Assembly: GCA_965612745.1 (NCBI GenBank)
Contig: CBFDTD010000001.1
Span: 6,937 to 70,936, forward strand
DNA: 64,000 nucleotides
Source: an uncultured bacterium
GTDB taxonomy: Bacteria; Chloroflexota; Anaerolineae; B4-G1
Reading direction: 5' to 3'
The notes beneath the pieces are model-generated. The model made no database searches and was not told the origin of the DNA. It was given only the letters and a program-made list of their open reading frames with translations. Below, piece after piece: positions 3,213 to 56,867 of this stretch. Position numbers and translations under genes: made by a program. How positions within the stretch are numbered: position 1 is the first letter of the stretch; every line of letters starts with the position of its first letter.

Positions 3213-3323
3213 CAAATGACCTCCCACATTCATTTTATCACACAACTGCCTTCATTAAAAGCCTCCCGTCTTGGTGCGCAAACGGGGTGCGTTCGATCCG
3301 ATCTCCGAATCCGTTGACAGTTC

Positions 3324-3409
3324 CAGGGAACGTTTAGGAGTCCAAACTGCGTCGAAAAAGCACGGGCTCGCCCGCCGGAGGCTCCACTCGACGCTCTAAA
3401 CATTCCCTG
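3324..3409 (-). mobile_element. Internally deleted copy (about 86 bp) of the MITE-like element family, retaining both terminal inverted repeats
   Basis: The reverse complement reads cagggaatgtttagagcgtcg...agtggagcctccggcgggcgagcccgtg...ctttttcgacgcagtttggactcctaaacgttccctg. This matches the ends and 3' half of the elements at 6249 and 11277. Confidence 0.5.
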
Positions 3410-3439
3410 AATTTGACAATTCGCCTTCCCTGCGGTAAC

Positions 3440-3640
3440 ATAATAACGGTCGTGCTAGACGGGGAGCTGGCGGTGCCCTGTACCCGCAATCCGCCATAGC
3501 GGGGTCGAATTCCCTCCCGAGGGTCGGGCCACTCGATACTGTCGGCGTCAAGCGGTGTTGAAGACCGGGTCCTGCGCGGCAGGAGCCTCCGAACCCCGCC
3601 AGGTCCGGGAGGAAGCAACGGTAAGGAGCCCCTCCTGGGC
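3440..3640 (+). promoter_or_regulatory. Candidate c-di-AMP (ydaO/kimA-type) riboswitch in the long 5' leader of the YabE-like gene
   Basis: Three blocks occur in the expected order. ACGGGGAGC...ACCCG is at about 3459-3490. GGGGUCGAAUUCC is at about 3503-3515 and resembles GGGGUGAAUCC. CCGAACCCCGCCAGGUCCGGGAGGAAGC is at about 3589-3616 and resembles CCGAACCCGNCAGCUAACCUCGUAAGC. A downstream hairpin, ggaggcggcgg-caatc-ccgccgcctcc, sequesters an AGGAGG. The consensus is recalled from memory and was not computed. Confidence 0.35.
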
Positions 3641-3768
3641 GCCGCAGGGGTGCCTAGTCGGAGCCGGTTGATTCCGGTAAGCCGGGTGGTGCGGTTCGAC
3701 GGGGGGTGCACGACCATTCGTCAAAGGAGGCGGCGGCAATCCCGCCGCCTCCCTTGCACCGATAGCGT

Positions 3769-5187
3769 ATGGAGACAACCGCAACCATCCCGCTCAGACG
3801 TGTGCATTTGCCACGAGGACTCAAGGCGTTCGTGGCGCTGACGTTCATCGTCGCTACATTGGCGGCTACCTATCAGACGACGCTGACGCCAGTCACACTG
3901 GTGGTGGATGGTCAAGTGCAGCGGCTGCATACCCACCAGGATACCGTCGCTGCGCTGCTAATGGATGCCGACCTCACTATTCGCCCTGAGGACCTCGTCA
4001 CCCCCGCACCGGACACGCCGCTTAAGCCGGGCTTAATTGTGGAGGTATGGCGGGCCCGCCCCGTGCGTATCAGCGCCGATGGACACATCATCGCGCTCCG
4101 CACCCACGCCACATCGGTCAAGGCAGTGCTGGAGGAGGCGAAAATATCGCTGGGGCCGCACGACAGGGTAGAGGTCGAGGGAGAACTGCGCCCGACCAAT
4201 CCCAGCCTGGCCGACCCTCAACCTGCCCGCGTCACAGTCCACCGCGCCGTTCCCTTCACATTGCACGAGGACGGCCAGGCGACTACGCTCTACACCACCG
4301 CCCCCACCGTCGGAGAGGCGTTACGTCAGGCTGGGCTGACCCTCTACCTGGCCGATTATGTCCAGCCAGGTCTTGGTGAGCGCATATCGGCGGGGATGCA
4401 TATTTACGTTGAGCGCTCTATACCGGTGACGGTGCAGGTGGACGGACGGACAGTCCGCACCCGCACGCATCGGCAGCGCGTGGGTGAGGTACTGGCCGAT
4501 CTGGGCATCGTTCTCACCGGTCAGGACTATACTACACCTACACTCGACGCTCCCCTGGGAAAAGACACCGCCATCCGTGTTGTGCGCGTTAGCGAGCGCT
4601 TCCTGATCGAGCAAGAGCCCATCCCTTTCGAGACAGTGTGGCAGGCTGACCCAGACCTGGAGATTGACCATCAGCGGTTGTTGCAGGAAGGGATGCGGGG
4701 CATACTAGAACGCCGCATCCGCGTACGCTACGAGGATGGTCACGAGGTCGCACGGGCGGTTGAGGACGAGTACGTCGCTGTCCCGCCCATGAACAAGATC
4801 ATCGGCTATGGGACCAAGATCGTCATCCGTACTCTTGACACCCCATCCGGCCCGGTCGAGTACTGGCGCGTGATCCGCATGTTGGCGACCTCTTACTCGG
4901 CCGCGACGGCCGGCACGCCGAGGACCAGTCCCTATTATGGACGCACAGCCACGGGGATGAACATGGGATACGGCATCGTCGCCGTGGATCCACGGGTGAT
5001 CAATCTGCACAGCAGAGTCTACGTGCCCGGCTATGGTATCGGCATCGCTGGTGATACCGGCGGTGCGATCAGAGGGCGGCGCATTGACTTGGGGTACGAC
5101 GACGATAGCCTGGTGCTCTGGTACCGCTGGGTGGACGTCTATCTGCTGACCCCCGTGCCCGATAGGATTGATTACATCCTCGACTAG
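3769..5187 (+). CDS. YabE-like cell-wall protein with an N-terminal TM anchor, DUF348 repeats, a G5 domain and a C-terminal 3D (MltA-like) domain
   Basis: The G5-like segment (ETVWQADPDLE...IIGYGTK) and the C-terminal 3D-domain motifs (GIAGDTGGAIRGRRIDLGYDDD...VDVYLL) are present. Confidence 0.7.
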   Translation: METTATIPLRRVHLPRGLKAFVALTFIVATLAATYQTTLTPVTLVVDGQVQRLHTHQDTVAALLMDADLTIRPEDLVTPAPDTPLKPGLIVEVWRARPVRISADGHIIALRTHATSVKAVLEEAKISLGPHDRVEVEGELRPTNPSLADPQPARVTVHRAVPFTLHEDGQATTLYTTAPTVGEALRQAGLTLYLADYVQPGLGERISAGMHIYVERSIPVTVQVDGRTVRTRTHRQRVGEVLADLGIVLTGQDYTTPTLDAPLGKDTAIRVVRVSERFLIEQEPIPFETVWQADPDLEIDHQRLLQEGMRGILERRIRVRYEDGHEVARAVEDEYVAVPPMNKIIGYGTKIVIRTLDTPSGPVEYWRVIRMLATSYSAATAGTPRTSPYYGRTATGMNMGYGIVAVDPRVINLHSRVYVPGYGIGIAGDTGGAIRGRRIDLGYDDDSLVLWYRWVDVYLLTPVPDRIDYILD

Positions 5188-5196
5188 AGCCGGCCG

Positions 5197-6090
5197 ATGG
5201 ACGTGCGCCGATTGCTGGAGCAATGGGACCTCCGGCCAAGCAAGGGGCTGGGCCAGAATTTTCTCGTGGACCAGGCCGCACTAGAGAGAATCGTCGCCGC
5301 TGCTGAACTGACCCCCGATGACATCGTTTTGGAGGTCGGTGCGGGACTGGGGACGCTGACCAGACGGCTGGCTCAGAATGCCGGACACGTGGTGGCCGTC
5401 GAACTGGACCAACGGCTGATCCCTGTGTTACGGAGCGTCCTGGCCGACTTCGACAACGTCACGCTAGTCCAGGGCGACATCCTGTCGCTTGACCCCGTCG
5501 CCCTGATCGGCGCCGCCAACCTCCAATCTCCAACCCCAAACCTCCAATCTCCAACCCCAAACCTCCAATACAAAGTCGTCGCCAACCTTCCCTACTACAT
5601 CACCTCGGCCGTGCTGCGCCACTTGCTGGAGGCCAACCTCAAACCCCAGCGGATGGTGGTCACGGTGCAGCGGGAGGTGGCAGAGCGCATCGTCGCGCAG
5701 CCGGGACAGATGAGCCTGCTGGCAGTGAGCGTGCAATTCTACGGGCGGCCGCAACTGCTCTTTCGCATCAAGCCGGGCAGTTTCTATCCCCCGCCGGAGG
5801 TGGAATCAGCGGTGGTGCGGGTGGATCTCCATGCTGCACCGTCTGTGCCCGTGGGGGATACAGATACCTTCTTCCGCGTAGTGCGGGCCGGCTTCGCCCA
5901 GCGCCGCAAGCAACTCCGCAATGCCCTGGCCGCCGGCTTGGGGCTGTCACCCGAAGAGGCGGCGGCCAGATTGAGGGAAGTAGGCGTGGATCCCCGGCGG
6001 CGCGCACAGACGCTCAGCCTTGAGGAGTGGGCCAGGATCGTCCGTGCCTTAGGCACTGCTGCCCCCAGGGCTTTCCCAAAGTCCAGATAG
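5197..6090 (+). CDS. rsmA: 16S rRNA (adenine1518/1519-N6)-dimethyltransferase RsmA/KsgA, carrying an in-frame 21-bp tandem-repeat insertion
   Basis: The N-terminal GQNFLVD motif, the SAM-binding EVGAGLGTLT motif and the NLPYYI motif are all present. Confidence 0.9.
   Translation: MDVRRLLEQWDLRPSKGLGQNFLVDQAALERIVAAAELTPDDIVLEVGAGLGTLTRRLAQNAGHVVAVELDQRLIPVLRSVLADFDNVTLVQGDILSLDPVALIGAANLQSPTPNLQSPTPNLQYKVVANLPYYITSAVLRHLLEANLKPQRMVVTVQREVAERIVAQPGQMSLLAVSVQFYGRPQLLFRIKPGSFYPPPEVESAVVRVDLHAAPSVPVGDTDTFFRVVRAGFAQRRKQLRNALAAGLGLSPEEAAARLREVGVDPRRRAQTLSLEEWARIVRALGTAAPRAFPKSR
5516..5568 (+). repeat. 21-bp tandem repeat (aacctccaatctccaacccca), about 2.5 copies, in frame inside rsmA, encoding NLQSPTPNLQSPTPNLQ
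   Basis: The repeat is directly visible in the sequence. Confidence 0.85.
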
Positions 6091-6127
6091 GTTGGGTCTG
6101 GCTAAAATTCGTGGGGAGAAAAGGTCG

Positions 6128-6186
6128 GACGCCCCGCTTCAGCGGGGATTTTCCGGCTGCAGCCGGACGTCCAACCGATTTTAGCC
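6128..6186. repeat. REP-like double-hairpin element (ccccgcttcagcgggg + ccggctgcagccgg), family copy 1
   Basis: The same about 55-bp unit recurs at 31742-31848 (two copies) and at 56802-56850. Confidence 0.5.
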
Positions 6187-6248
6187 ACACCCAAATAGAT
6201 CAGCCAACCATTTGCCTTCACGTCGTGGGCGTGGTAGAATGAGTAATA

Positions 6249-6493
6249 CAGGGAACGTTCAGAGCGCCGTCTGGGTGCTGGCCATTCCCAAAAAGTCGCT
6301 GCCGGTTTCCCGCGCATCCGCCCGGCGGTGAACCACCGGGCTCAGCCGGCAAAGCCCTGCGGGCTGATCTCAGCCCCGAAGGGGCTTCGCTTTTGAGCCG
6401 GAGGCTTGAGCGTAGTGGAGCCTCCGGCGGGCGAGCCCGTGCTATGGCGGAAGCGACTTTTTCGACGCAGTTTGGACTCCTAAACGTTCCCTG
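6249..6493 (+). mobile_element. MITE-like element, about 245 bp, with terminal inverted repeats (cagggaacgtt...aacgttccctg) and long internal self-complementarity
   Basis: It is near-identical to 11277-11521. The TIRs are read directly. No transposase is encoded. Confidence 0.55.
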
Positions 6494-6526
6494 TTCACTC
6501 GCAATCTCAAAGGAGGTACGCTTCAA

Positions 6527-7573
6527 ATGAAGACCGAAAGTTTTCGTGGTCGCGACTTCATCACTTTGCTCGACTGGAGCAAGGAGGAAGTCGAGACCAT
6601 CCTGGACGTCGCCCTCGACCTGAAGAGACGGTACGCTATGGGCGAACTCCACGATCATATCCTGCGGGCCAAGACCCTGTTCATGATCTTCTACAACCAA
6701 TCCCTGCGCACCCGCAACTCCTTCGAAGCCGGGATGACCCAATTGGGCGGCCATGCCCATTACCTGGACCCCAGCAAGATCTACACCCCCGCCCTGCCCG
6801 GCAAAGAGGTGGCCTACTCCACCGAGCGCGTCTCCGACGTAGCGCGGGTGCTCTCCCGCATGGGCAATGCCATCGCCATCAGGTGTTATGGCGATCCGGT
6901 GGATTGGGTCTACGGCGGGGCCAACGAGATGATCCGCAACTTCGCCTACTGGGCCGACATCCCCGTGTTGAATATGGAAGACGATAAGTACCATCCCTTT
7001 CAGGCCCTGGCCGACGTCCTGACGGTCAAAGAGAAGTTCGGCACCTTCAAGGGCGTGAAATTCGTCATGTCCTGGGCCTACTCCCCCAGTGTCCACAAAC
7101 CCCGTGCGGTGCCCCAGAGCGCCATTATCGCCGCCACGATGATGGGCTGCGATACCGTGCTGGCCCATCCCCCGGAGATGGCGCTAGACCCCGAGGTCAT
7201 TGCCGCCTGCGAGAAATACGCCCAGATGAACGGCTCCTCCTTCGAGGTCGTCCACGATTTTGAGGAGGCGGCAAAGGGAGCCCACATTCTCTACCCCAAA
7301 GCCTGGGCGCCAGTTCAAATCTTCAAGCCCCCTGTGGGTGAGGACGACCCGCAACTGGCGCAGGAAATCTTCGATCGCTACAAGGACTGGAAGGCCACAC
7401 CCGAGTACATAGCCCTGGCCGATCCCAACGCCATTTATATGCACTGCCTGCCTGCCGATCGGAGTTGGGAGGTCGAGGACGAGGTCATTGATGGCCCACA
7501 GTCGGTGGTCTTCGACGAGGCCGAGAACCGACTGCACGTGCAGAAGGCAGTGATGAGTTTGGTGATGCGGTAG
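6527..7573 (+). CDS. YgeW-type (unknown/oxamate-type) carbamoyltransferase, paralog 1
   Basis: It belongs to the OTC/ATC superfamily. The carbamoyl-phosphate motif is SLRTRNSFE. The second-substrate loop motif is YMHCLPADRS. SWAYSPS...AHPPE blocks are present, and the overall pattern matches E. coli YgeW as recalled from memory. The RBS is aaaggagg. Confidence 0.75.
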   Translation: MKTESFRGRDFITLLDWSKEEVETILDVALDLKRRYAMGELHDHILRAKTLFMIFYNQSLRTRNSFEAGMTQLGGHAHYLDPSKIYTPALPGKEVAYSTERVSDVARVLSRMGNAIAIRCYGDPVDWVYGGANEMIRNFAYWADIPVLNMEDDKYHPFQALADVLTVKEKFGTFKGVKFVMSWAYSPSVHKPRAVPQSAIIAATMMGCDTVLAHPPEMALDPEVIAACEKYAQMNGSSFEVVHDFEEAAKGAHILYPKAWAPVQIFKPPVGEDDPQLAQEIFDRYKDWKATPEYIALADPNAIYMHCLPADRSWEVEDEVIDGPQSVVFDEAENRLHVQKAVMSLVMR

Positions 7574-7700
7574 CGAGTCAGCGAGTCGGCGAGTCAGCGA
7601 ATCAACGAATCAGCGCACTTGCAGACCTGCAAACTTGCAGACCTGCAAACTTGCAGCCTTGCAGACCTGCAAACTTGCAGCCTTGCAGACCTGCGGGAGG
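7574..7700. repeat. Two adjacent tandem 8-mer arrays in the spacer between the carbamoyltransferase paralogs. The first is (CGARTCRG)x5. The second is (CTTGCAGMC/CTGCAAA) in about 10 copies.
   Basis: The arrays are directly visible. ttgcagacctgcaa is itself near-palindromic. Confidence 0.85.
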
Positions 7701-7706
7701 AGTATA

Positions 7707-8744
7707 ATGGACCTGTATGGACGTGACTTTATCTGCACCCAGGACTGGACGTTCGATGAACTAATGGCGGTGCTCGATCTGGCGGCCAAGATGAAACGGG
7801 ATCGCTTCTCCGACCGCTGGACGAGCATCCTGAAGCACAAGACTTTCCTGATGTTCTTCTTCAACCCCTCGGTGCGCACACGCCTCTCCTTTGAGGCAGC
7901 AGCGACCGAACTGGGCGGCCACGCGCAGTTTATGACCCCCTCGGCGGGTCGCTTCAAGACGGAGAAGAAGGCCGGGGAGACCATCGAGGACGCCGCCCAG
8001 GTGATGGCCCGTTACGTGGCCGGCATAGGCATCCGCATCCTTGAGGACAAGATCCCCTACTACGGCGCGGGCGACGAGATGCTGCTGGAATACGCCCGGT
8101 GGGCCGACGTCCCCATCATCAACATGGCCGACGACCGCTTCCATCCCTGCCAGGCGCTGGCCGATGTGATGGGCTGGGCCGAGTGGTACGGCGAAGGCCC
8201 CGGTCGCCCGAATTACGAGGCCCTGCGTGGCAAGAAGTTCCTGCTCACCTGGGGCTCCGGCGCACTCGCCCGCTCCTGGTGCAGTGTGCAGGCCGCGCTG
8301 CTCATCGCCTCCCGCTTTGGCATGCACGTCACGATGGCCTACCCGGAGGGGTACGACCTCGACCCAGAGGTCATCGAATGGACCAGGCAGAACTGCTCCG
8401 CCAATGGAGCCTCCTTCGACATCGTCCACGACCCCGACAGCGGCTACGAAGGCGCGCACATCGTCTACTCCCGCAACTGGGTCAGCCCGGAGGCATACCA
8501 GGACGGCGTGTTCCAGAGGCAGGCCGAGATCGAGAAAGCGATGGCCCATCGGGGCTGGACGACCACCGCCGAGCGGATGGCCCGCACCGAGAACGCCATC
8601 TTCACCCACCCGATGCCGGTGGACCGGGGCAACGAGGTGACCGACGAGGTGGCTTCCGGCCCCCGCTCGGCCATCTACGACATCGCCGAGAACCGCCTGC
8701 ACGTGCAAAAGGCGCTGATGGCGCTGACGATGGGAGGGTATTGA
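7707..8744 (+). CDS. YgeW-family carbamoyltransferase, divergent paralog 2
   Basis: The motifs are SVRTRLSFE and HPMPVDRG (in place of HCLP), and the C-terminal ENRLHVQKALMAL is shared with paralog 1. The start was set at MDLYGRDFI after the gggaggag RBS, because the ORF-track start lies inside the repeat array. Confidence 0.7.
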   Translation: MDLYGRDFICTQDWTFDELMAVLDLAAKMKRDRFSDRWTSILKHKTFLMFFFNPSVRTRLSFEAAATELGGHAQFMTPSAGRFKTEKKAGETIEDAAQVMARYVAGIGIRILEDKIPYYGAGDEMLLEYARWADVPIINMADDRFHPCQALADVMGWAEWYGEGPGRPNYEALRGKKFLLTWGSGALARSWCSVQAALLIASRFGMHVTMAYPEGYDLDPEVIEWTRQNCSANGASFDIVHDPDSGYEGAHIVYSRNWVSPEAYQDGVFQRQAEIEKAMAHRGWTTTAERMARTENAIFTHPMPVDRGNEVTDEVASGPRSAIYDIAENRLHVQKALMALTMGGY

Positions 8745-8745
8745 T

Positions 8746-9699
8746 ATGAGGAAACGCATTGCGGTAGTCGCCATCGGCGGCAACTCGCTCATCAAGGATA
8801 AGAAACACATCACCGTGCCCGATCAATACCAGGCAGCGAAGGAGACCTGCTATCACATCGCCGACATGATCGAGCAAGGGTGGGATGTGGCCATTGGCCA
8901 CGGCAACGGCCCCCAGGTGGGCTTCATCTTGCGCCGGTCGGAGATCGCGGCCAAGGTCGCGGGGATGCACAAGGTGCCGCTCGACTCCTGCGGAGCCGAC
9001 ACTCAAGGAGCCATCGGCTACCACCTTCAGCAGAACCTATACAACGAGTTCAAGCGCCGGAGGATGAAGAAAGCCGCCACAACAGTGGTCACCCAGGTGC
9101 TGGTGGATAAGAACGACCCGGCTTTCCAGAACCCCACCAAGCCCATCGGCGGGTTTATGGATGAAGATGAGGCCAAAGAGCGCGCTGAGAAAGAGGGATG
9201 GACGGTGGTAGAGGACGCCGGGCGCGGCTGGCGACGGGTGGTACCCTCCCCTCTCCCTCAGGAGATCATCGAACTGGACGCGGTGCGGGAACTGCTGGAC
9301 GCAGGCATCATCACCATCACCGTCGGCGGTGGGGGCATCCCCGTCATCCGCAACGAGGAGGGCGACCTGCAAGGGATAGCGGCGGTCATTGACAAAGATT
9401 ACGCCTCATCGCTGTTGGCCCGCTCCATCGGTGCCGACCTTTTCCTCATCTCCACCGCCGTGGAGAAGGTCTACCTCAACTTCAACAAGCCCGACCAGAG
9501 GCCCATTGATGTGATGACGGTCGCTGAAGCGCAGAGGTACATGGAGGAAGGGCACTTCGCCAAGGGGAGCATGCTCCCCAAGATCCAGGCCATCGTGTGG
9601 TTCCTGGAGGCCGGGGGCAAAGAGGCGATCATCACCAGCCCCGAGAACATCGCCCGCGCGCTGCGAGGGGAGACCGGAACGCGCATCCTGCCGGATTGA
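8746..9699 (+). CDS. arcC: Carbamate kinase
   Basis: The N-terminus RIAVVAIGGNSL and the overall carbamate-kinase pattern are present. The gene is immediately downstream of the transcarbamylases. Confidence 0.85.
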   Translation: MRKRIAVVAIGGNSLIKDKKHITVPDQYQAAKETCYHIADMIEQGWDVAIGHGNGPQVGFILRRSEIAAKVAGMHKVPLDSCGADTQGAIGYHLQQNLYNEFKRRRMKKAATTVVTQVLVDKNDPAFQNPTKPIGGFMDEDEAKERAEKEGWTVVEDAGRGWRRVVPSPLPQEIIELDAVRELLDAGIITITVGGGGIPVIRNEEGDLQGIAAVIDKDYASSLLARSIGADLFLISTAVEKVYLNFNKPDQRPIDVMTVAEAQRYMEEGHFAKGSMLPKIQAIVWFLEAGGKEAIITSPENIARALRGETGTRILPD

Positions 9700-9726
9700 G
9701 TGGCACACCATTCTAAAGGAATTGAA

Positions 9727-10293
9727 ATGAGCAAGCAAACCGTATCCGTATCTCGTTTCACACGACTCATCCACCCTATGCCGGCCTTTCTGGTCACCTG
9801 TGCTGGAGAGGATGGCCGGCCCAACGCAATCGCCATCGCTTGGCTGACACCTGTCAGTGTTAATCCACCCCTGCTGGCCTTCGCCATCCGACCGCAGCGT
9901 TATTCCTACGAACTGCTGCAAGAGAACCCAGCCTTTGTGGTCAATGTGATGGCCTACGAGCGGGCCGTCGAGGTGCTCTTCTGCGGGCGCTGCTCGGGGC
10001 GGGATGTGAACAAGTTCGCCACAGCCAACCTCACGCCGGTGCCCGCTCAGGCAGTGAACGCCCCCGCCATCGCTGAGGCGCTGGCCCACGTGGAGTGCGA
10101 GGTGGAGGCGGAATATCCGGCCGGCGACCACGTCATCGTGGTGGGACGGGTGATGGCAGCCTCGGCCGAGGAGGGAATGCTGGTGGAGGGCCTGCGCGAT
10201 CTTATGGCCGCCCCGCCTCTTTTCCACCTCGGTGGCAGCTGCTTCACCACCAGCAGCGGCGAGATCTCAGAGCCGGACGTAGGACTGGATTGA
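9727..10293 (+). CDS. Flavin reductase-like (FMN-binding split-barrel) protein
   Basis: The flavin reductase-like domain pattern is present (HPMPAFLVTCAGEDGRPNAIAIAWLTPVS...). The start was set at MSKQ after the aaagga RBS. Confidence 0.65.
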   Translation: MSKQTVSVSRFTRLIHPMPAFLVTCAGEDGRPNAIAIAWLTPVSVNPPLLAFAIRPQRYSYELLQENPAFVVNVMAYERAVEVLFCGRCSGRDVNKFATANLTPVPAQAVNAPAIAEALAHVECEVEAEYPAGDHVIVVGRVMAASAEEGMLVEGLRDLMAAPPLFHLGGSCFTTSSGEISEPDVGLD

Positions 10294-10374
10294 AAGGTGG
10301 GTATGTCGGGAACCCGGTGCTGGGCATGAAGATCGCCTGCGACGTCATCCGGGAGTGTGCGTGGCATAGGTCCC

Positions 10375-10403
10375 TTGTCAATAGAACATTTAAGTGCTAT
10401 AAT
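10375..10403 (+). promoter_or_regulatory. Sigma70-type promoter for ssrA: TTGTCA, a 17-nt spacer, then TATAAT
   Basis: The -35 and -10 hexamers and spacing are read directly. The mature tmRNA 5' end lies about 19 nt downstream. Confidence 0.5.
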
Positions 10404-10421
10404 AACATCGCCGTGAGAAAT

Positions 10422-10845
10422 GGGGATGACAGGCTTCGACGGGGAAGGCTGATCACGGACGGCAAGCCGGGGCGCTCTGCCCCCGTTAACAACGGAGCAC
10501 ACACTCCAAAGTGCCAACAACACTTGGATCCCTGTCCCGCAGGCCGCGATGGCTGCCGTTCCACTGGCGGCCTAATCCGGCCCGAGGGATAAACTGACCG
10601 CACAGACGGTCACGTCCGCCCTGGTCTCGCGCCGGCAGGCCGGGGGCCGGGCGTAAGAGAGCCGGCGTGCGGCGCTCTGACGCCGATAGGAGCGCTCAAG
10701 CGGGAGTTTCGGCTCCCATCGGCTAGGCCCGGGTGTAGCGCGGTCGGCGGCGACTCCCCGGGCGAGAGGTAAAAGGCCGACTATGCTTGTAGAAGTCCCT
10801 GGTCGAATTCCTCGGACGCGGGTTCGATTCCCGCCATCTCCACCA
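10422..10845 (+). ncRNA. ssrA: tmRNA (SsrA)
   Basis: The 5' end is GGGGAUGACAGGCUUCGACGGGG. The 3' end is a tRNA-like GGACGCGGGUUCGAUUCCCGCCAUCUCCACCA with an encoded CCA. An internal tag reading frame ends ...AAMAAVPLAA followed by TAA. Confidence 0.85.
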
Positions 10846-10848
10846 CAG

Positions 10849-10886
10849 ATGACGAGGCTGGTATCATCAGATACCGGCCTCGTTGC
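10849..10886 (+). terminator. Hairpin (acgaggctggtat-catcag-ataccggcctcgt) immediately after ssrA
   Basis: A 13-bp stem is read directly, but there is no clear T-tract. Confidence 0.35.
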
Positions 10887-11276
10887 GCGTCGGGCTAGTG
10901 GGCTGTGGTGCAAGTTCCGCACGAAATGGGATGCTTTGCCGCCCCGCCGGTGGATGAATCCAGCGGCTAATGCAGGTGAAAGCGCGGTGAACCGCGCTCC
11001 CGGCCGGGTTTCAGCCCGGTTTACCGGGCTTTGATGCTACTCGGCCGGGCGATTCATCGCCCGGCGTGGGCGGCCAATCTCTTGCAATATTTGTTGGCGC
11101 GCATAGGCTCCGGGATGAATGTGCGACAAGATGGCCTCTTGTCCTACTTGACCCACCGTTTACGCGCGCTAACCAATGTTTTGACTGCACACCACTGGCA
11201 GGGAAATGGCGAGATGTTGCACGGGCGGCCGACTTGTGCTACACTGTTTCCGTCTCAGGGGCGCAGCGGAGGATTC

Positions 11277-11521
11277 CAGGGAATATTTAGAGTGTCGTCT
11301 GGGCACTGGTCATCTCCAAAAAGTCGTTGCCGGTTTCTCGCACGTCCGCCCGGTGGTGAACCACCGGGCTCAGCCAGCAAAGCCCTACGGGCTGATCTCA
11401 GCCCCGAAGGGGCTTCGCTTTTGAGCCGGAGGCTTGAGCGTAGTGGAGCCTCCGGCGGGCGAGCCCGTGCTATGGCGGAAGCGACTTTTTCGACGCAGTT
11501 TGGACTCCTAAACGTTCCCTG
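11277..11521 (+). mobile_element. MITE-like element, second full copy (TIR ggattccagggaa...ttccctggattcc)
   Basis: It is about 95% identical to 6249-6493 by eye, with perfect 13-bp TIRs at 11271-11283 and 11515-11527. Confidence 0.55.
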
Positions 11522-11557
11522 GATTCCTGATGGCAATAGAAAAGAGGAGGGTGGACT

Positions 11558-12067
11558 ATGGAGTTCTCGGAGTTGATCGAAGCGCGGTACAGTGCACGGG
11601 CGTACAAGCCCGATCCGGTGGAGGACGAAAAACTGCAACAAGTGCTCGAAGCGGCACGCCTAGCACCGACCGCGGCCAACCGGCAACCCTTCCAGATCAT
11701 CGTGATCCACACGGTGGGGCGGGAGGCGGAGTTGAAGCGCATCTACAACAAGGACTGGTTCGTGCAAGCGCCGTTGGTCATCTGTGCCTGCGGGATTCCT
11801 GCCCGGGGCTGGAGGCGCCGGGACGGTAAAAGTTACTGTGATGTGGACGTCGCCATCGCTATGGATCACCTGATCCTGGCCGCCGCCAACCTGGGGCTGG
11901 GCACGTGCTGGATTGCCGCCTTTGATCCCGTTGCGGCGCGTGAGGTTCTGGGTCTGCCCGACGACGTGGAGCCTATCGCCTTCACGCCATTGGGGTACCC
12001 TGCTGACCGGCCCGGGCCGAAGAAGCGCAAAGCATTATCCGAACTGGTGCGGTATGAACGCTGGTGA
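11558..12067 (+). CDS. Nitroreductase-family protein
   Basis: The nitroreductase fold pattern (ARYSARAYKPDPV...LEAARLAPTAANRQPF) is present, and there is a strong RBS (aagaggagggtgg). Confidence 0.8.
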   Translation: MEFSELIEARYSARAYKPDPVEDEKLQQVLEAARLAPTAANRQPFQIIVIHTVGREAELKRIYNKDWFVQAPLVICACGIPARGWRRRDGKSYCDVDVAIAMDHLILAAANLGLGTCWIAAFDPVAAREVLGLPDDVEPIAFTPLGYPADRPGPKKRKALSELVRYERW

Positions 12068-22508: not shown

Positions 22509-22641
22509 CTGCTATATTCTCCTTGCTGCCTGTACTGGGCCACGGAGCGGGTTGTATTATACTTCATCCCATTGCTGAGGGCAAGTCAAGCAGACAGCCA
22601 CCCAACGGTTGACAGCAGGACACCAGAGTACCACAAGGTAA

Positions 22642-22728
22642 GGGGGTCGTAGTGGCGACTTCAGTCGCTCTGACCTCGCTTTGAACGACTGAAGTCGTTA
22701 CTACGAGCAAAATCGCCAGTGTGTAGGG
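22642..22728. repeat. About 87-bp direct repeat, copy 1, containing a 21-bp imperfect inverted repeat (tcgtagtggcgacttcagtcg...cgactgaagtcgttactacga)
   Basis: It is near-identical to 23075-23163. The pair flanks a roughly 350-bp non-coding segment. Confidence 0.7.
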
Positions 22729-23074
22729 CAACGGATGGACAGCGGATAAACGGATGAGATGACCGACTTTATCATCGTTGGCTCGGTGCGGCGATTTTGC
22801 CGCCGGACACCTTTGGGCAAGGGGTATCACCGTGGGATATGCTTCGCTCCTTAGCCCGGGCCACTACTCCCTCGGTGTTCACTCTCTCACCATCTGGATA
22901 CGCCCTCGGCAAGAGTGCCCGCCGGGGAATGCGGTGCTTCCGGAGGTTGCAATGCCGGAAGGCTATCCGCTTATCCGTTTCTCATCCGCTGCCCCGGTAA
23001 ACAGATACTGCTGCGAGGCCACGAAAGGGCGGCCGGCGCGGCCTACTTCTGCGCACTGATGAACCGCAAGATAT

Positions 23075-23163
23075 GGGGGTCGTAGTGGCGACTTCAGTCG
23101 CTCTGACCTCGCTCTGAACGACTGAAGTCGTTACTACGAGCAAAATCGCCGGTGTGTAGGGGG
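23075..23163. repeat. About 87-bp direct repeat, copy 2, with the same internal hairpin
   Basis: The sequence identity is read directly. Confidence 0.7.
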
Positions 23164-23212: not shown

Positions 23213-23752
23213 CTAGCCGCTGGCCAATGTTGCACCTTTGCGTAATGCCTCCTTGTTCAACCCTAGCAGTTTGCGGTGGCGCTCCGGCAGGTGATCGTCC
23301 AGTGCCTGCTCCACTGCCTCCAGTGGCACGACGCCGGTGGCCTGCACCAGCGCACCCAAACAGATCACGTTCGCCAGCCGGGTGTTCCCAACCTCCTCGG
23401 CCATGTCGGTGGCGGGGACGTAGAAAACGCGGATGTCGTCTCGCTCGCTCTTCTGCGGAACGAGCGAACTGTTCACCACCAGCACACCGCCCGCTTTTAC
23501 TGCCGGCTCGAAGGCCTCCATCGAGGGAAGGTTGAGCACGATGGCCGCGCTGGGCCGCCGCACCAGCGGCGAGCCGATTTCCTCGTCGGAGACAACGACG
23601 GTGCAACGGGCCTTGCCGCCGCGCATCTCTGGACCGTAGGAGGGAATCCATGTCACGTGATAACCGCTGTCCATCGCAGCGTAGGCGAGCAATTGCCCGG
23701 CGAAGAGCGCCCCTTGCCCCCCAAAGCCAGAAATGATGATCTCTTCCTGCAT
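23213..23752 (-). CDS. 2-oxoacid:ferredoxin oxidoreductase, gamma subunit
   Basis: The N-terminus [14 protein letters not shown] is typical of POR/VOR/KOR gamma subunits. Confidence 0.85.
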
Positions 23753-23863
23753 CCTGTGCCTCCTGCTTCCTGCCTCCTGCTTCCTGCCTCCTGCCTCCTG
23801 CCTCTTGCCTCCTGCCTCCTGCTTCCTGCTTCCTGCTTCCTGCCTCCTGCCTCCTGCTGCCTC
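23753..23863. repeat. Heptamer tandem array (CCTGCYT)x about 15, filling the whole beta-gamma spacer. On the mRNA (minus) strand it reads as repeated AGGAGGC/AGGAAGC, which is Shine-Dalgarno-like.
   Basis: The array is directly visible, and its boundaries coincide with the beta stop codon and the gamma start codon. Confidence 0.85.
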
Positions 23864-24685
<822 letters not shown>

Positions 24686-31704: not shown

Positions 31705-31739
31705 AACCCACCTCCTCAATCTTGACGTCCCCTTCCGGA

Positions 31740-31850
31740 GGCCCCGCTTCAGCGGGGATTTTCCGGCTGAAGCCGGACGTTCCACTCCGGCGGGCTCGCT
31801 TCAGCGGTGATTTTCCGGCTGAAGCCGGACGTCCCACTGATTTTAGCATA
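31740..31850. repeat. Two tandem REP-like double-hairpin units (ccccgcttcagcgggg / ccggctgaagccgg)
   Basis: These are family copies of 6128-6186 and 56802-56850. Confidence 0.5.
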
Positions 31851-32091
31851 AATATCGTGACTACTCAGCCACCCCGCCGAACTCAGAATCGGACGCAGAT
31901 TCGCGCAGATTTTCGCAGATAAGATCAAAAAATCAGCGTTTATCAGCGTTCATCTGCGTCCTAAAGAATACGTTTCAACGCTCTGCCTGGGGATGGCTGG
32001 GCAGTTACTAAATATCTTTAAATCGCAGTTCGATTTTCAGTAGTGCCGGTCCAGGGTGGTATCGCTGCAATGCAGGCATACCTCTGATTTT

Positions 32092-34703: not shown

Positions 34704-34952
34704 CGCCTTCCTCCTCATTGGGTTGGTAGTCGGTGTGAAACGTAACGGGAGTCCCGACTTCAGCCGGGAAATCCTCGATAAATCAGGGTTTCCGTCGTGT
34801 TTTGCACCGCAAACCAGGTTACGTTTTATTCCTTACGCCGTGCTTTCAGTATATGACGATTGCACCCGCTTGTCAACCCCACCACCTGTGGTACACTTGT
34901 CACCACCGGCATTTGCTCATTGTTTCACTATATCATTGTAATGGGGTGTTCT

Positions 34953-43586: not shown

Positions 43587-44585
43587 ATGGCTGAGAGTGC
43601 TTCTGAGCGACGCAGGCGGGAAGAGGAGGCCCAGTTCGCCGAGCGAGGTGTAAGCCTGTGGCAGGACGCCTGGCGGCGATTGCTGCGCAACCGTATGGCG
43701 GTGGCAGGGCTGCTCTTTATTGGTTTCCTGGTCTTTTGCTTTATCACCGCCGACTTTCTTCCACCGTACAGTTACCGGGAGGCCGACTACGAGAACACGC
43801 GCATCGGCCCGCGCTGGCCCGACCATATTTTCGGCACCGATAAACTGGGGCGAGACGTGTTTAGTCGAGTGTGGTGGGGCACACGTGTTTCTCTCACTGT
43901 TGCAGTCGTTGGTTCGCTGACGGCGCTGGTCATCGGTGTCACTTACGGGGCCATCTCCGGCTACCTGGGTGGCCGGATAGATAACCTCATGATGCGCTTT
44001 GTGGACGTGATGTATGGCTTCCCCACCCTCCTTTTCATCATCCTGATTATGGTGGTCCTGCCGTCGGAGACCGCTATCCAGGGTATGATCAATATCTTCA
44101 TCGCTATCGGTGTCGTGGGGTGGATGGGGATGGCCCGCCTTGTCCGGGGGCAGTTCCTCTCCCTGCGAGAGAAGGAGTTCGTCCTGGCGGCGCGAATGGT
44201 CGGTGCCGGCCCGGCCCGTATCATCTCCCGTCACCTGTTGCCCAACAGCCTGGGTCCGGCCATCGTCTCGCTGACGCTGGGTATCCCGAGCCTGATCCTG
44301 ACCGAGGCGGTGTTGAGTTTCATTGGTCTGGGCGTACCACCGCCGTACCCCAGTTGGGGCCAGATGGTGTCCGAAGGGTGGCGCGGGCTGCGGGCCACGC
44401 CCCACCTGACCGTCTTCCCCGGCCTGGCGATTAGTCTGACTATGCTGGCTTTCAACTTCCTGGGGGACGGTCTGCGGGACGCGCTGGACCCGACAATGCG
44501 GGGCACCGCTTTGGTCCGCGCAGCACGACGGAAGAAGCGGCGAGCGAGGAGGGCAGCGCGTAGAGCGGCAGCCAAGGCCGCTTAG
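43587..44585 (+). CDS. ABC transporter permease (DppC/OppC-like)
   Basis: The DppC pattern is present. The C-terminal tail is basic (RRKKRRARRAARRAA). Confidence 0.8.
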   Translation: MAESASERRRREEEAQFAERGVSLWQDAWRRLLRNRMAVAGLLFIGFLVFCFITADFLPPYSYREADYENTRIGPRWPDHIFGTDKLGRDVFSRVWWGTRVSLTVAVVGSLTALVIGVTYGAISGYLGGRIDNLMMRFVDVMYGFPTLLFIILIMVVLPSETAIQGMINIFIAIGVVGWMGMARLVRGQFLSLREKEFVLAARMVGAGPARIISRHLLPNSLGPAIVSLTLGIPSLILTEAVLSFIGLGVPPPYPSWGQMVSEGWRGLRATPHLTVFPGLAISLTMLAFNFLGDGLRDALDPTMRGTALVRAARRKKRRARRAARRAAAKAA

Positions 44586-56772: not shown

Positions 56773-56801
56773 GTTAGTTTGCGGTGCGAAACTCGACGGA
56801 G

Positions 56802-56850
56802 GCCCCGATTTAGCGGGGTTTTCCCGGCTGAAGCCGGGCCTCCAACCGAG
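56802..56850. repeat. REP-like double-hairpin element (ccccgatttagcgggg / cccggctgaagccggg)
   Basis: It is a family member of the elements at 6128 and 31740. Confidence 0.45.
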
Positions 56851-56867
56851 AACTAGGTCAAGATACT

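Follow-up and report, generated by a model that had tools for sequence, protein, structure and literature searches.

A low-copy family of 245-bp elements, probably miniature inverted-repeat transposable elements, in an uncultured Anaerolineae-like Chloroflexota bacterium

We analysed a stretch of 64,000 nucleotides (nt) from an uncultured Chloroflexota bacterium (contig CBFDTD010000001.1 of GenBank assembly GCA_965612745.1, forward-strand positions 6,937 to 70,936; hereafter the window) that carries three copies of an intergenic repeat of about 245 bp. These copies most likely belong (with a probability of roughly 0.8) to a low-copy family of non-autonomous DNA transposons, i.e. bacterial MITEs (miniature inverted-repeat transposable elements), of an uncultured Anaerolineae-like Chloroflexota bacterium from hydrothermal and marine sediments. 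An initial annotation of the same DNA had proposed a non-autonomous transposable element mobilised in trans. The first part of that proposal is borne out by (i) terminal inverted repeats, (ii) dispersal over unrelated sites, (iii) empty sites in sister species and (iv) 5-bp target-site duplications; mobilisation in trans is something we infer, no transposase with matching ends having been found. The element is a new MITE family of an ordinary kind and leaves the existing picture of how such elements work unchanged. It gives the Chloroflexota/Anaerolineae, a phylum in which few mobile elements have been described, a documented MITE family with a clean empty site (a literature search turned up no earlier description of such a MITE in Chloroflexi). 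Among co-existing strains, the copies can be seen to drive rearrangement of the genome.

Element ends and dispersal of copies

Copies 1 and 2 are collinear, full-length repeats of 245 nt each that differ at 17 positions (93% identity), while copy 3 is an internally deleted form of 86 nt in the opposite orientation; all three lie where the initial annotation had placed them (Table 1). The ends of every window copy read CAGGGAAYRTT...AACGTTCCCTG. CAGGGAAYRTT has six matches in the 64-kb window, which are precisely the six copy ends (0.08 expected by chance), and no other end-like sequences were found in the window with three mismatches allowed. The inverted repeat of copy 1 is perfect over 11 of 11 positions and can be extended to about 16 of 17 (one mismatch and one indel), and that of copy 2 has two mismatches within the 11-mer. 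The internal self-complementary arms described earlier are present as well, and self-complementarity extends much further: the element profile matches its own reverse complement over nt 2–244 (E about 1e-6), which makes the unit an imperfect palindrome from end to end. Searching the window with the profile (nhmmer) revealed no further copies.

Copy 3 keeps both ends, as had been noted, but the single interior loss of about 160 bp ascribed to it is in fact two internal deletions of about 144 nt and 15 nt, which leave element nt 1–21, about 166–190 and 206–245. The same 86-nt copy is found, identical, in strain contigs L002, L018 and L021.

Copies outside the window were sought by collection scans with an exact 20-mer from the element 3′ end, covering representative genomes of 185,579 species plus metagenome contigs. 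Among the representative genomes, the only match is an Anaerolineales metagenome-assembled genome (MAG; L001) of a different species from that of the window, in which the copy is about 80% identical and occupies an unrelated site. Ten metagenome contigs also matched, and these were pooled with further strain contigs retrieved via window proteins. Overall, at most six distinct right-hand flanks were seen (i.e. OTCase, nitroreductase, mutL, truB, ‘site B’ of L019/L027 and the site in the second species), so that two sites in related contigs and one in the second species add to the three of the window. The copies are thus dispersed at unrelated sites and in both orientations. No copies occur in about 100 kb of sister-species sequence, and the unit has no match in plasmid and phage records (BLAST) or, in two scans, in viral contigs. 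The window species itself, whose identical or near-identical proteins carry source names from Chloroflexota/Anaerolineae, is abundant in hydrothermal-sediment metagenomes. Many strain contigs terminate inside the element, as is expected of a repeat, and the element explains MAG contig breaks at these loci. The 3′ end is invariant in L001, L019, L025 and L027, which is an ascertainment effect because the scans demanded the exact 3′ 20-mer.

The element is non-coding and gives no sign of coding. Each strand of the 245-bp unit has one open frame; the 17 substitutions between copies 1 and 2 fall on the three codon positions as 6/4/7 and show no codon periodicity; length variants carry deletions of 7, 15 and 21 nt, some of them not multiples of three; and no transposase-coding remnant was found in the unit. 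The open reading frames (ORFs) 6218..7168-, 11255..11641- and 11031..11576+, which had been called artefacts, do run through the copies, and the element explains such spurious ORFs called through repeats. An ORF annotated publicly through copy 2 has no Pfam hit on record.

Empty sites and target-site duplications

A fourth copy lies between truB and ribF: the flank of ‘site A’ is the truB 3′ end, and the unusual left flank of contig L008 is the start of ribF. In a sister species (L038), truB and ribF are 3 nt apart and uninterrupted, reading ...CAAGGTATTCTGTGC.... The junctions in the window species are ...CAAGGTGTT-E next to truB and E-GTGTTCTGTTCGCC... next to ribF (E, element), which gives an occupied site with the composite sequence ...CAAGGTGTT-E-GTGTTCTGTTC.... 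The 5-bp duplication GTGTT stands at the two truB/ribF junctions, and deleting the element together with one GTGTT gives back the collinear truB–ribF sequence. Judged from these sequences, truB–ribF is an empty site of the classical type, and its occupied form carries a target duplication of 5 bp, as left by precise insertion. At the insertion, the last five residues of TruB are replaced by 16 element-encoded residues.

Absence of the element at an otherwise conserved locus is also seen for copy 3. In five sister-species loci (L028–L032), the gene order mutL–ffs–G5 protein–ksgA and the promoter of the signal recognition particle (SRP) RNA are kept and the 86-nt copy is missing; MutL of the sister species is 86–88% identical to that of the window species. 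Copy 2, in turn, is bracketed by the direct repeat GATTC; counting the outermost C/G of each end as target would lengthen it to 7 bp (GGATTCC). Target-site duplications, which the initial annotation had suggested looking for, are therefore of 5 bp at both places where they were found, i.e. at copy 2 and at truB/ribF.

Several other candidate empty sites were rejected. For copy 2, nitroreductase homologues are uninformative because synteny is not conserved in relatives. The region upstream of OTCase in L010 lacks the element, but the entire upstream region differs. A match of the site B left flank to window positions 31858–32009 proved to be a different, 152-nt repeat.

As a separate observation, copy 3 is flanked by an imperfect direct repeat with 9 of 13 positions identical (3310–3322 and 3410–3422; CCGTTGACAGTTC and AATTTGACAATTC), and the SRP RNA promoter has its -35 hexamer within the right-hand unit. 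The length of this repeat is at odds with the 5-bp duplication found elsewhere.

Several points weigh against a MITE. A clean duplication is present at only two of the six sites and is lacking at copies 1 and 3, at site B and in the second species; cross-pairing the unmatched flanks at the first three of these yielded no 5-bp matches. The missing duplications are probably explained by recombination between copies, because copies recombine or convert and the exchange of flanks is documented (L024 and L008; see below). The two truB/ribF junctions come from separate contigs, and none spans truB–E–ribF directly. In the window, neither a transposase nor any longer element sharing these ends could be found. 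At most six sites is a low copy number for a MITE. The scans relied on an exact 20-mer and would have missed diverged copies. Finally, the second-species copy (L001/L025) has lost both arms of the long internal helix, a joint loss of the kind that structured RNAs show.

With these points taken into account, we envisage the following history for a MITE of this kind. A transposase encoded elsewhere would recognise the ends and move the element, which inserts between genes or at gene ends and duplicates 5 bp of target. Inserted copies then decay through transitions and short internal deletions, are partly homogenised by gene conversion and act as substrates for homologous recombination, which gives an inversion where the copies are inverted and, where they are direct, duplicates or circularises the 5-kb segment between them. 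Once transcribed, a copy would fold into a very stable hairpin and may alter mRNA fate in the OTCase operon leader, in the nitroreductase leader and at the truB–ribF junction.

Recombination between copies

We then compared the arrangements of element flanks in strain contigs. The order ksgA–E–OTCase is found in the window, L002 and L009. In L024, the ksgA-side flank of copy 1 is joined to the truB flank, and in L008 the ribF flank is joined to the OTCase flank, with a distinct element 5′ half. At the level of contig sequence, L024 and L008 are the reciprocal products expected of an inversion between inverted copies.

Direct copies appear to recombine too. L003 and L004 are 5-kb contigs (about 5.1 kb) from two different assemblies with exact end overlaps of 141 and 127 nt, which equal the assembler's k. 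They contain the two OTCase genes, carbamate kinase, flavin reductase, tmRNA and one hybrid element, and in L003 this hybrid links the left flank of copy 2 directly to the OTCase side. This indicates that the segment 6249–11276, between the direct copies 1 and 2, is either circular or duplicated in tandem. The element explains, among co-occurring strains, both the inversion and the 5-kb duplication or circle that includes the tmRNA and the arginine-catabolism operon.

The 17 differences between copies 1 and 2 are all transitions and are all confined to nt 1–112 (Fisher p = 8e-7), with no difference over the 133 nt at the 3′ end; this identical tract begins at nt 78 in strains L010 and L013. 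A homogenised 3′ half with a shifting tract boundary fits ongoing gene conversion.

It is conceivable, albeit unlikely, that these exchanges serve a function, with copy 1 and the truB/ribF copy, inverted relative to each other, acting as a recombination switch of the OTCase and ribF upstream regions and the direct pair (copies 1 and 2) allowing amplification or excision of a 5-kb OTCase–carbamate kinase–tmRNA cassette. The two arrangements occur side by side in natural populations; were the switch real, they would exchange what lies upstream of the OTCase operon (arginine catabolism) and of ribF, an essential gene. After the inversion, ribF and the OTCase operon point away from each other with the element alone between them, so that a switch would need the element to act as a promoter in the outward direction.

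Alternative explanations

The stability of the predicted fold raises the question of a structured RNA, i.e. a multi-copy small RNA gene or a cis-acting leader/attenuator whose copies are kept for a functional fold. Folding energies of -131 kcal/mol (plus strand) and -133 kcal/mol (minus strand), with z = -5.1 and -6.9, are striking, and both strands fold so stably because the unit is a palindrome. The three window copies are co-oriented with the downstream gene, at 33, 36 and 111 nt from its start codon (copies 1, 2 and 3), a predicted promoter ends 8 nt ahead of copy 1, and the unit contains a terminator-like hairpin. That one helix has lost both its arms together in the second species counts as a small point for structural constraint, and a small hairpin (nt 15–31) keeps all pairs between copies 1 and 2 despite four substitutions. 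However, Rfam gave no match at the gathering threshold and noise only up to E = 10. In consensus folding, the covariation term is unfavourable on both strands and at most two pairs are changed on both sides; shuffles reached the observed values in 151 of 500 cases for cells paired, 80 of 500 for pairs changed on both sides and 426 of 500 for the covariation score, a test of low power given only about five independent sequences. A tally from the consensus-fold table shows that single substitutions leave wobble pairs about equally often on either strand. Over all six sites, four copies are co-oriented with the downstream gene and two are antisense (the truB/ribF and second-species copies), the operon that follows site B has a consensus-like promoter of its own about 110 nt further downstream, neither a sigma-70-like promoter nor any other promoter-like site was found in the unit, and the downstream genes are functionally unrelated. 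We rejected a cis-regulatory leader because orientation and gene context vary over the six sites, and identities of 93–100% between copies together with target duplications argue for recent insertion. We consider a structured RNA quite unlikely.

Two other explanations deny the movement of a miniature unit. According to one, each copy is the remnant of a separate full-length insertion sequence that has lost its interior in place. Recurrent internal deletions do exist (copy 3, L027, L002 and L008), and the ends start with CAGGG, as reported for insertion sequences of the ISAs1 family (PMC11946415). This is nevertheless very unlikely: all full-length copies, including the one in a different species, have their 245-bp interior and their junctions in common, without any transposase-coding remnant, and independent deletions would not yield identical products. 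Least probable of all, and in our view extremely unlikely, is a non-transposing intergenic repeat of the repetitive extragenic palindrome (REP) or bacterial interspersed mosaic element (BIME) type, spread by recombination or by an enzyme like the REP-associated tyrosine transposase (RAYT). The window does hold several other palindromic intergenic repeat families, one of them 64 nt upstream of copy 1. REP/BIME units, as PMC3733652 describes them, are palindromes of 20–40 bp with a GTAG or CGTC head, whereas the present unit is 245 bp long, has true terminal inverted repeats and generates 5-bp target duplications, and the truB–ribF empty site points to precise insertion.

Comparison with known elements

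Classical bacterial MITEs include the Correia elements of Neisseria, the enterobacterial repetitive intergenic consensus (ERIC) or intergenic repeat unit (IRU) of enterobacteria and the repeat unit of pneumococcus (RUP) of Streptococcus pneumoniae. They are non-coding, intergenic units of 100–250 bp with terminal inverted repeats, are co-transcribed and form long hairpins, and occur in full-length and internally deleted forms; a genome can hold tens to hundreds of them, and the target duplicated by Correia elements and RUP is TA. The Chloroflexota element resembles them in its size, lack of coding capacity, terminal inverted repeats, hairpins and deleted forms. It has no sequence relationship to them and differs in its at most six observed sites and its 5-bp duplication.

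Insertion sequences of the ISAs1 family have inverted repeats of 14–22 bp that start with CAGGG and make a 10-bp target duplication (PMC11946415). The ends of our element also start with CAGGG and form an inverted repeat that is 11/11 perfect or about 16/17 when extended, but its duplication is 5 bp (at most 7) rather than 10 bp, and no ISAs1-type transposase was seen near any copy. The Tn3-derived inverted-repeat miniature elements (TIMEs) end in inverted repeats of roughly 40 bp that they have in common with transposons of the Tn3 family, for instance Tn5563a, and their predicted RNA hairpins range from -70 to -115 kcal/mol (PMC4133298). Similarities to TIMEs are (i) the size, (ii) the 5-bp duplications, (iii) the low copy number, (iv) the loss of flanking repeats from most copies through recombination, (v) predicted RNA hairpins and (vi) copy pairs able to bracket host DNA. 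By contrast, the ends described here are 11–17 bp and start with CAGGG, the host phylum differs, and similarity to plasmid records is not detectable. By sequence criteria, the ends fit ISAs1 and the duplication length does not, and we assign the element neither to ISAs1 nor to Tn3-derived TIMEs.

Features of the window copies

The coordinates of the copies and of their parts are collected in Table 1. A predicted sigma-70-type promoter stands directly ahead of copy 1, which would thus form the 5′ leader of the OTCase operon transcript.

Table 1. Copies of the element in the window, their component sequences and adjoining signals (E, element; SRP, signal recognition particle).
Feature	Position	Strand	Sequence or context
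Copy 1, full-length, 245 bp	6249..6493	+	ksgA (5197-6090) to first OTCase gene (ATG 6527); 33 nt before ATG
Copy 2, full-length, 245 bp	11277..11521	+	tmRNA (10422-10845) to nitroreductase gene (ATG 11558); 431 nt past tmRNA, 36 nt ahead of ATG
Copy 3, internally deleted, 86 bp	3324..3409	-	mutL (minus strand, start 3212) to SRP RNA gene (3450-3713); 5′ end 3 nt from -35 hexamer of predicted SRP RNA promoter (3413-3441)
5′ terminal inverted repeat, copy 1	6249..6259	+	CAGGGAACGTT; partner 6483-6493
3′ terminal inverted repeat, copy 1	6483..6493	+	AACGTTCCCTG
Terminal inverted repeat pair, copy 2	11277-11287 / 11511-11521		
Terminal inverted repeat pair, copy 3	3399-3409 / 3324-3334		
Ends expected of a cognate autonomous element			CAGGGAAYRTTYAG
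Long internal helix, 5′ arm	6290..6300	+	AAAAAGTCGCT
Long internal helix, 3′ arm	6452-6462		AGCGACTTTTT
Target-site duplication of copy 2, left	11272..11276	+	GATTC; read directly
Target-site duplication of copy 2, right	11522..11526	+	GATTC; read directly
Terminator-like hairpin and U-rich tail within copy 1	6372..6396	+	AGCCCCGAAGGGGCT TCGCTTTTGA; consensus match only
Terminator-like hairpin, equivalent in copy 2	11400-11424		
Element hairpin			AGCCCCGAAGGGGCU
Predicted sigma-70-type promoter	6212..6240	+	TTGCCT-17-TAGAAT with TG; ends 8 nt ahead of copy 1; consensus match only

Other repeats and neighbouring features

Several further repeats accompany the element in the window. The 152-nt non-coding repeat mentioned above (GACTACTCAGCCACC...GCAGTTACT) occurs at 31858–32009 and in L019 at 2078–2229; the two are 96% identical with unrelated flanks, and in L019 the MITE lies 2 nt from the end of this repeat. 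REP-like double hairpins (CGGACGCCCCGCTTCAGCGGGGATTTTCCGGCTGMAGCCGGACGTCC) with GGACG/CGTCC ends are present at 6126–6185 (the one 64 nt upstream of MITE copy 1), 31736–31795, 31788–31847 and 56797–56856, with an inverted partner at 34748–34814. Two 99-nt direct repeats (22630–22728 and 23063–23161) are 95% identical and 433 nt apart, and each holds a 60-nt palindrome with GTAG...CTAC ends.

At 44123–44223, ARAGORN predicts a 101-nt tRNA-Arg (CCT), which is missing from the Rfam tRNA model's output at the gathering score; the call may be false, or the tRNA may contain an insert. At 23743–23882, a 7-nt unit (TGCCTCC/TGCTTCC) is repeated in tandem about 20 times.

The two OTCase genes downstream of copy 1 are separated by an 8-nt tandem repeat (CTTGCAGA/CCTGCAAA; 7602–7702). 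The OTCase–OTCase spacer is 69, 109 or 133 nt in different strain contigs, i.e. it changes in 8-nt steps, and the length of the tandem array is therefore polymorphic. In L010 (1–2215), the first OTCase gene is more divergent (93% nucleotide identity, against 99.6% downstream) and is preceded by a different upstream region without the element, and an extra gene (PF05635, 23S_rRNA_IVP) stands between the two OTCase genes.

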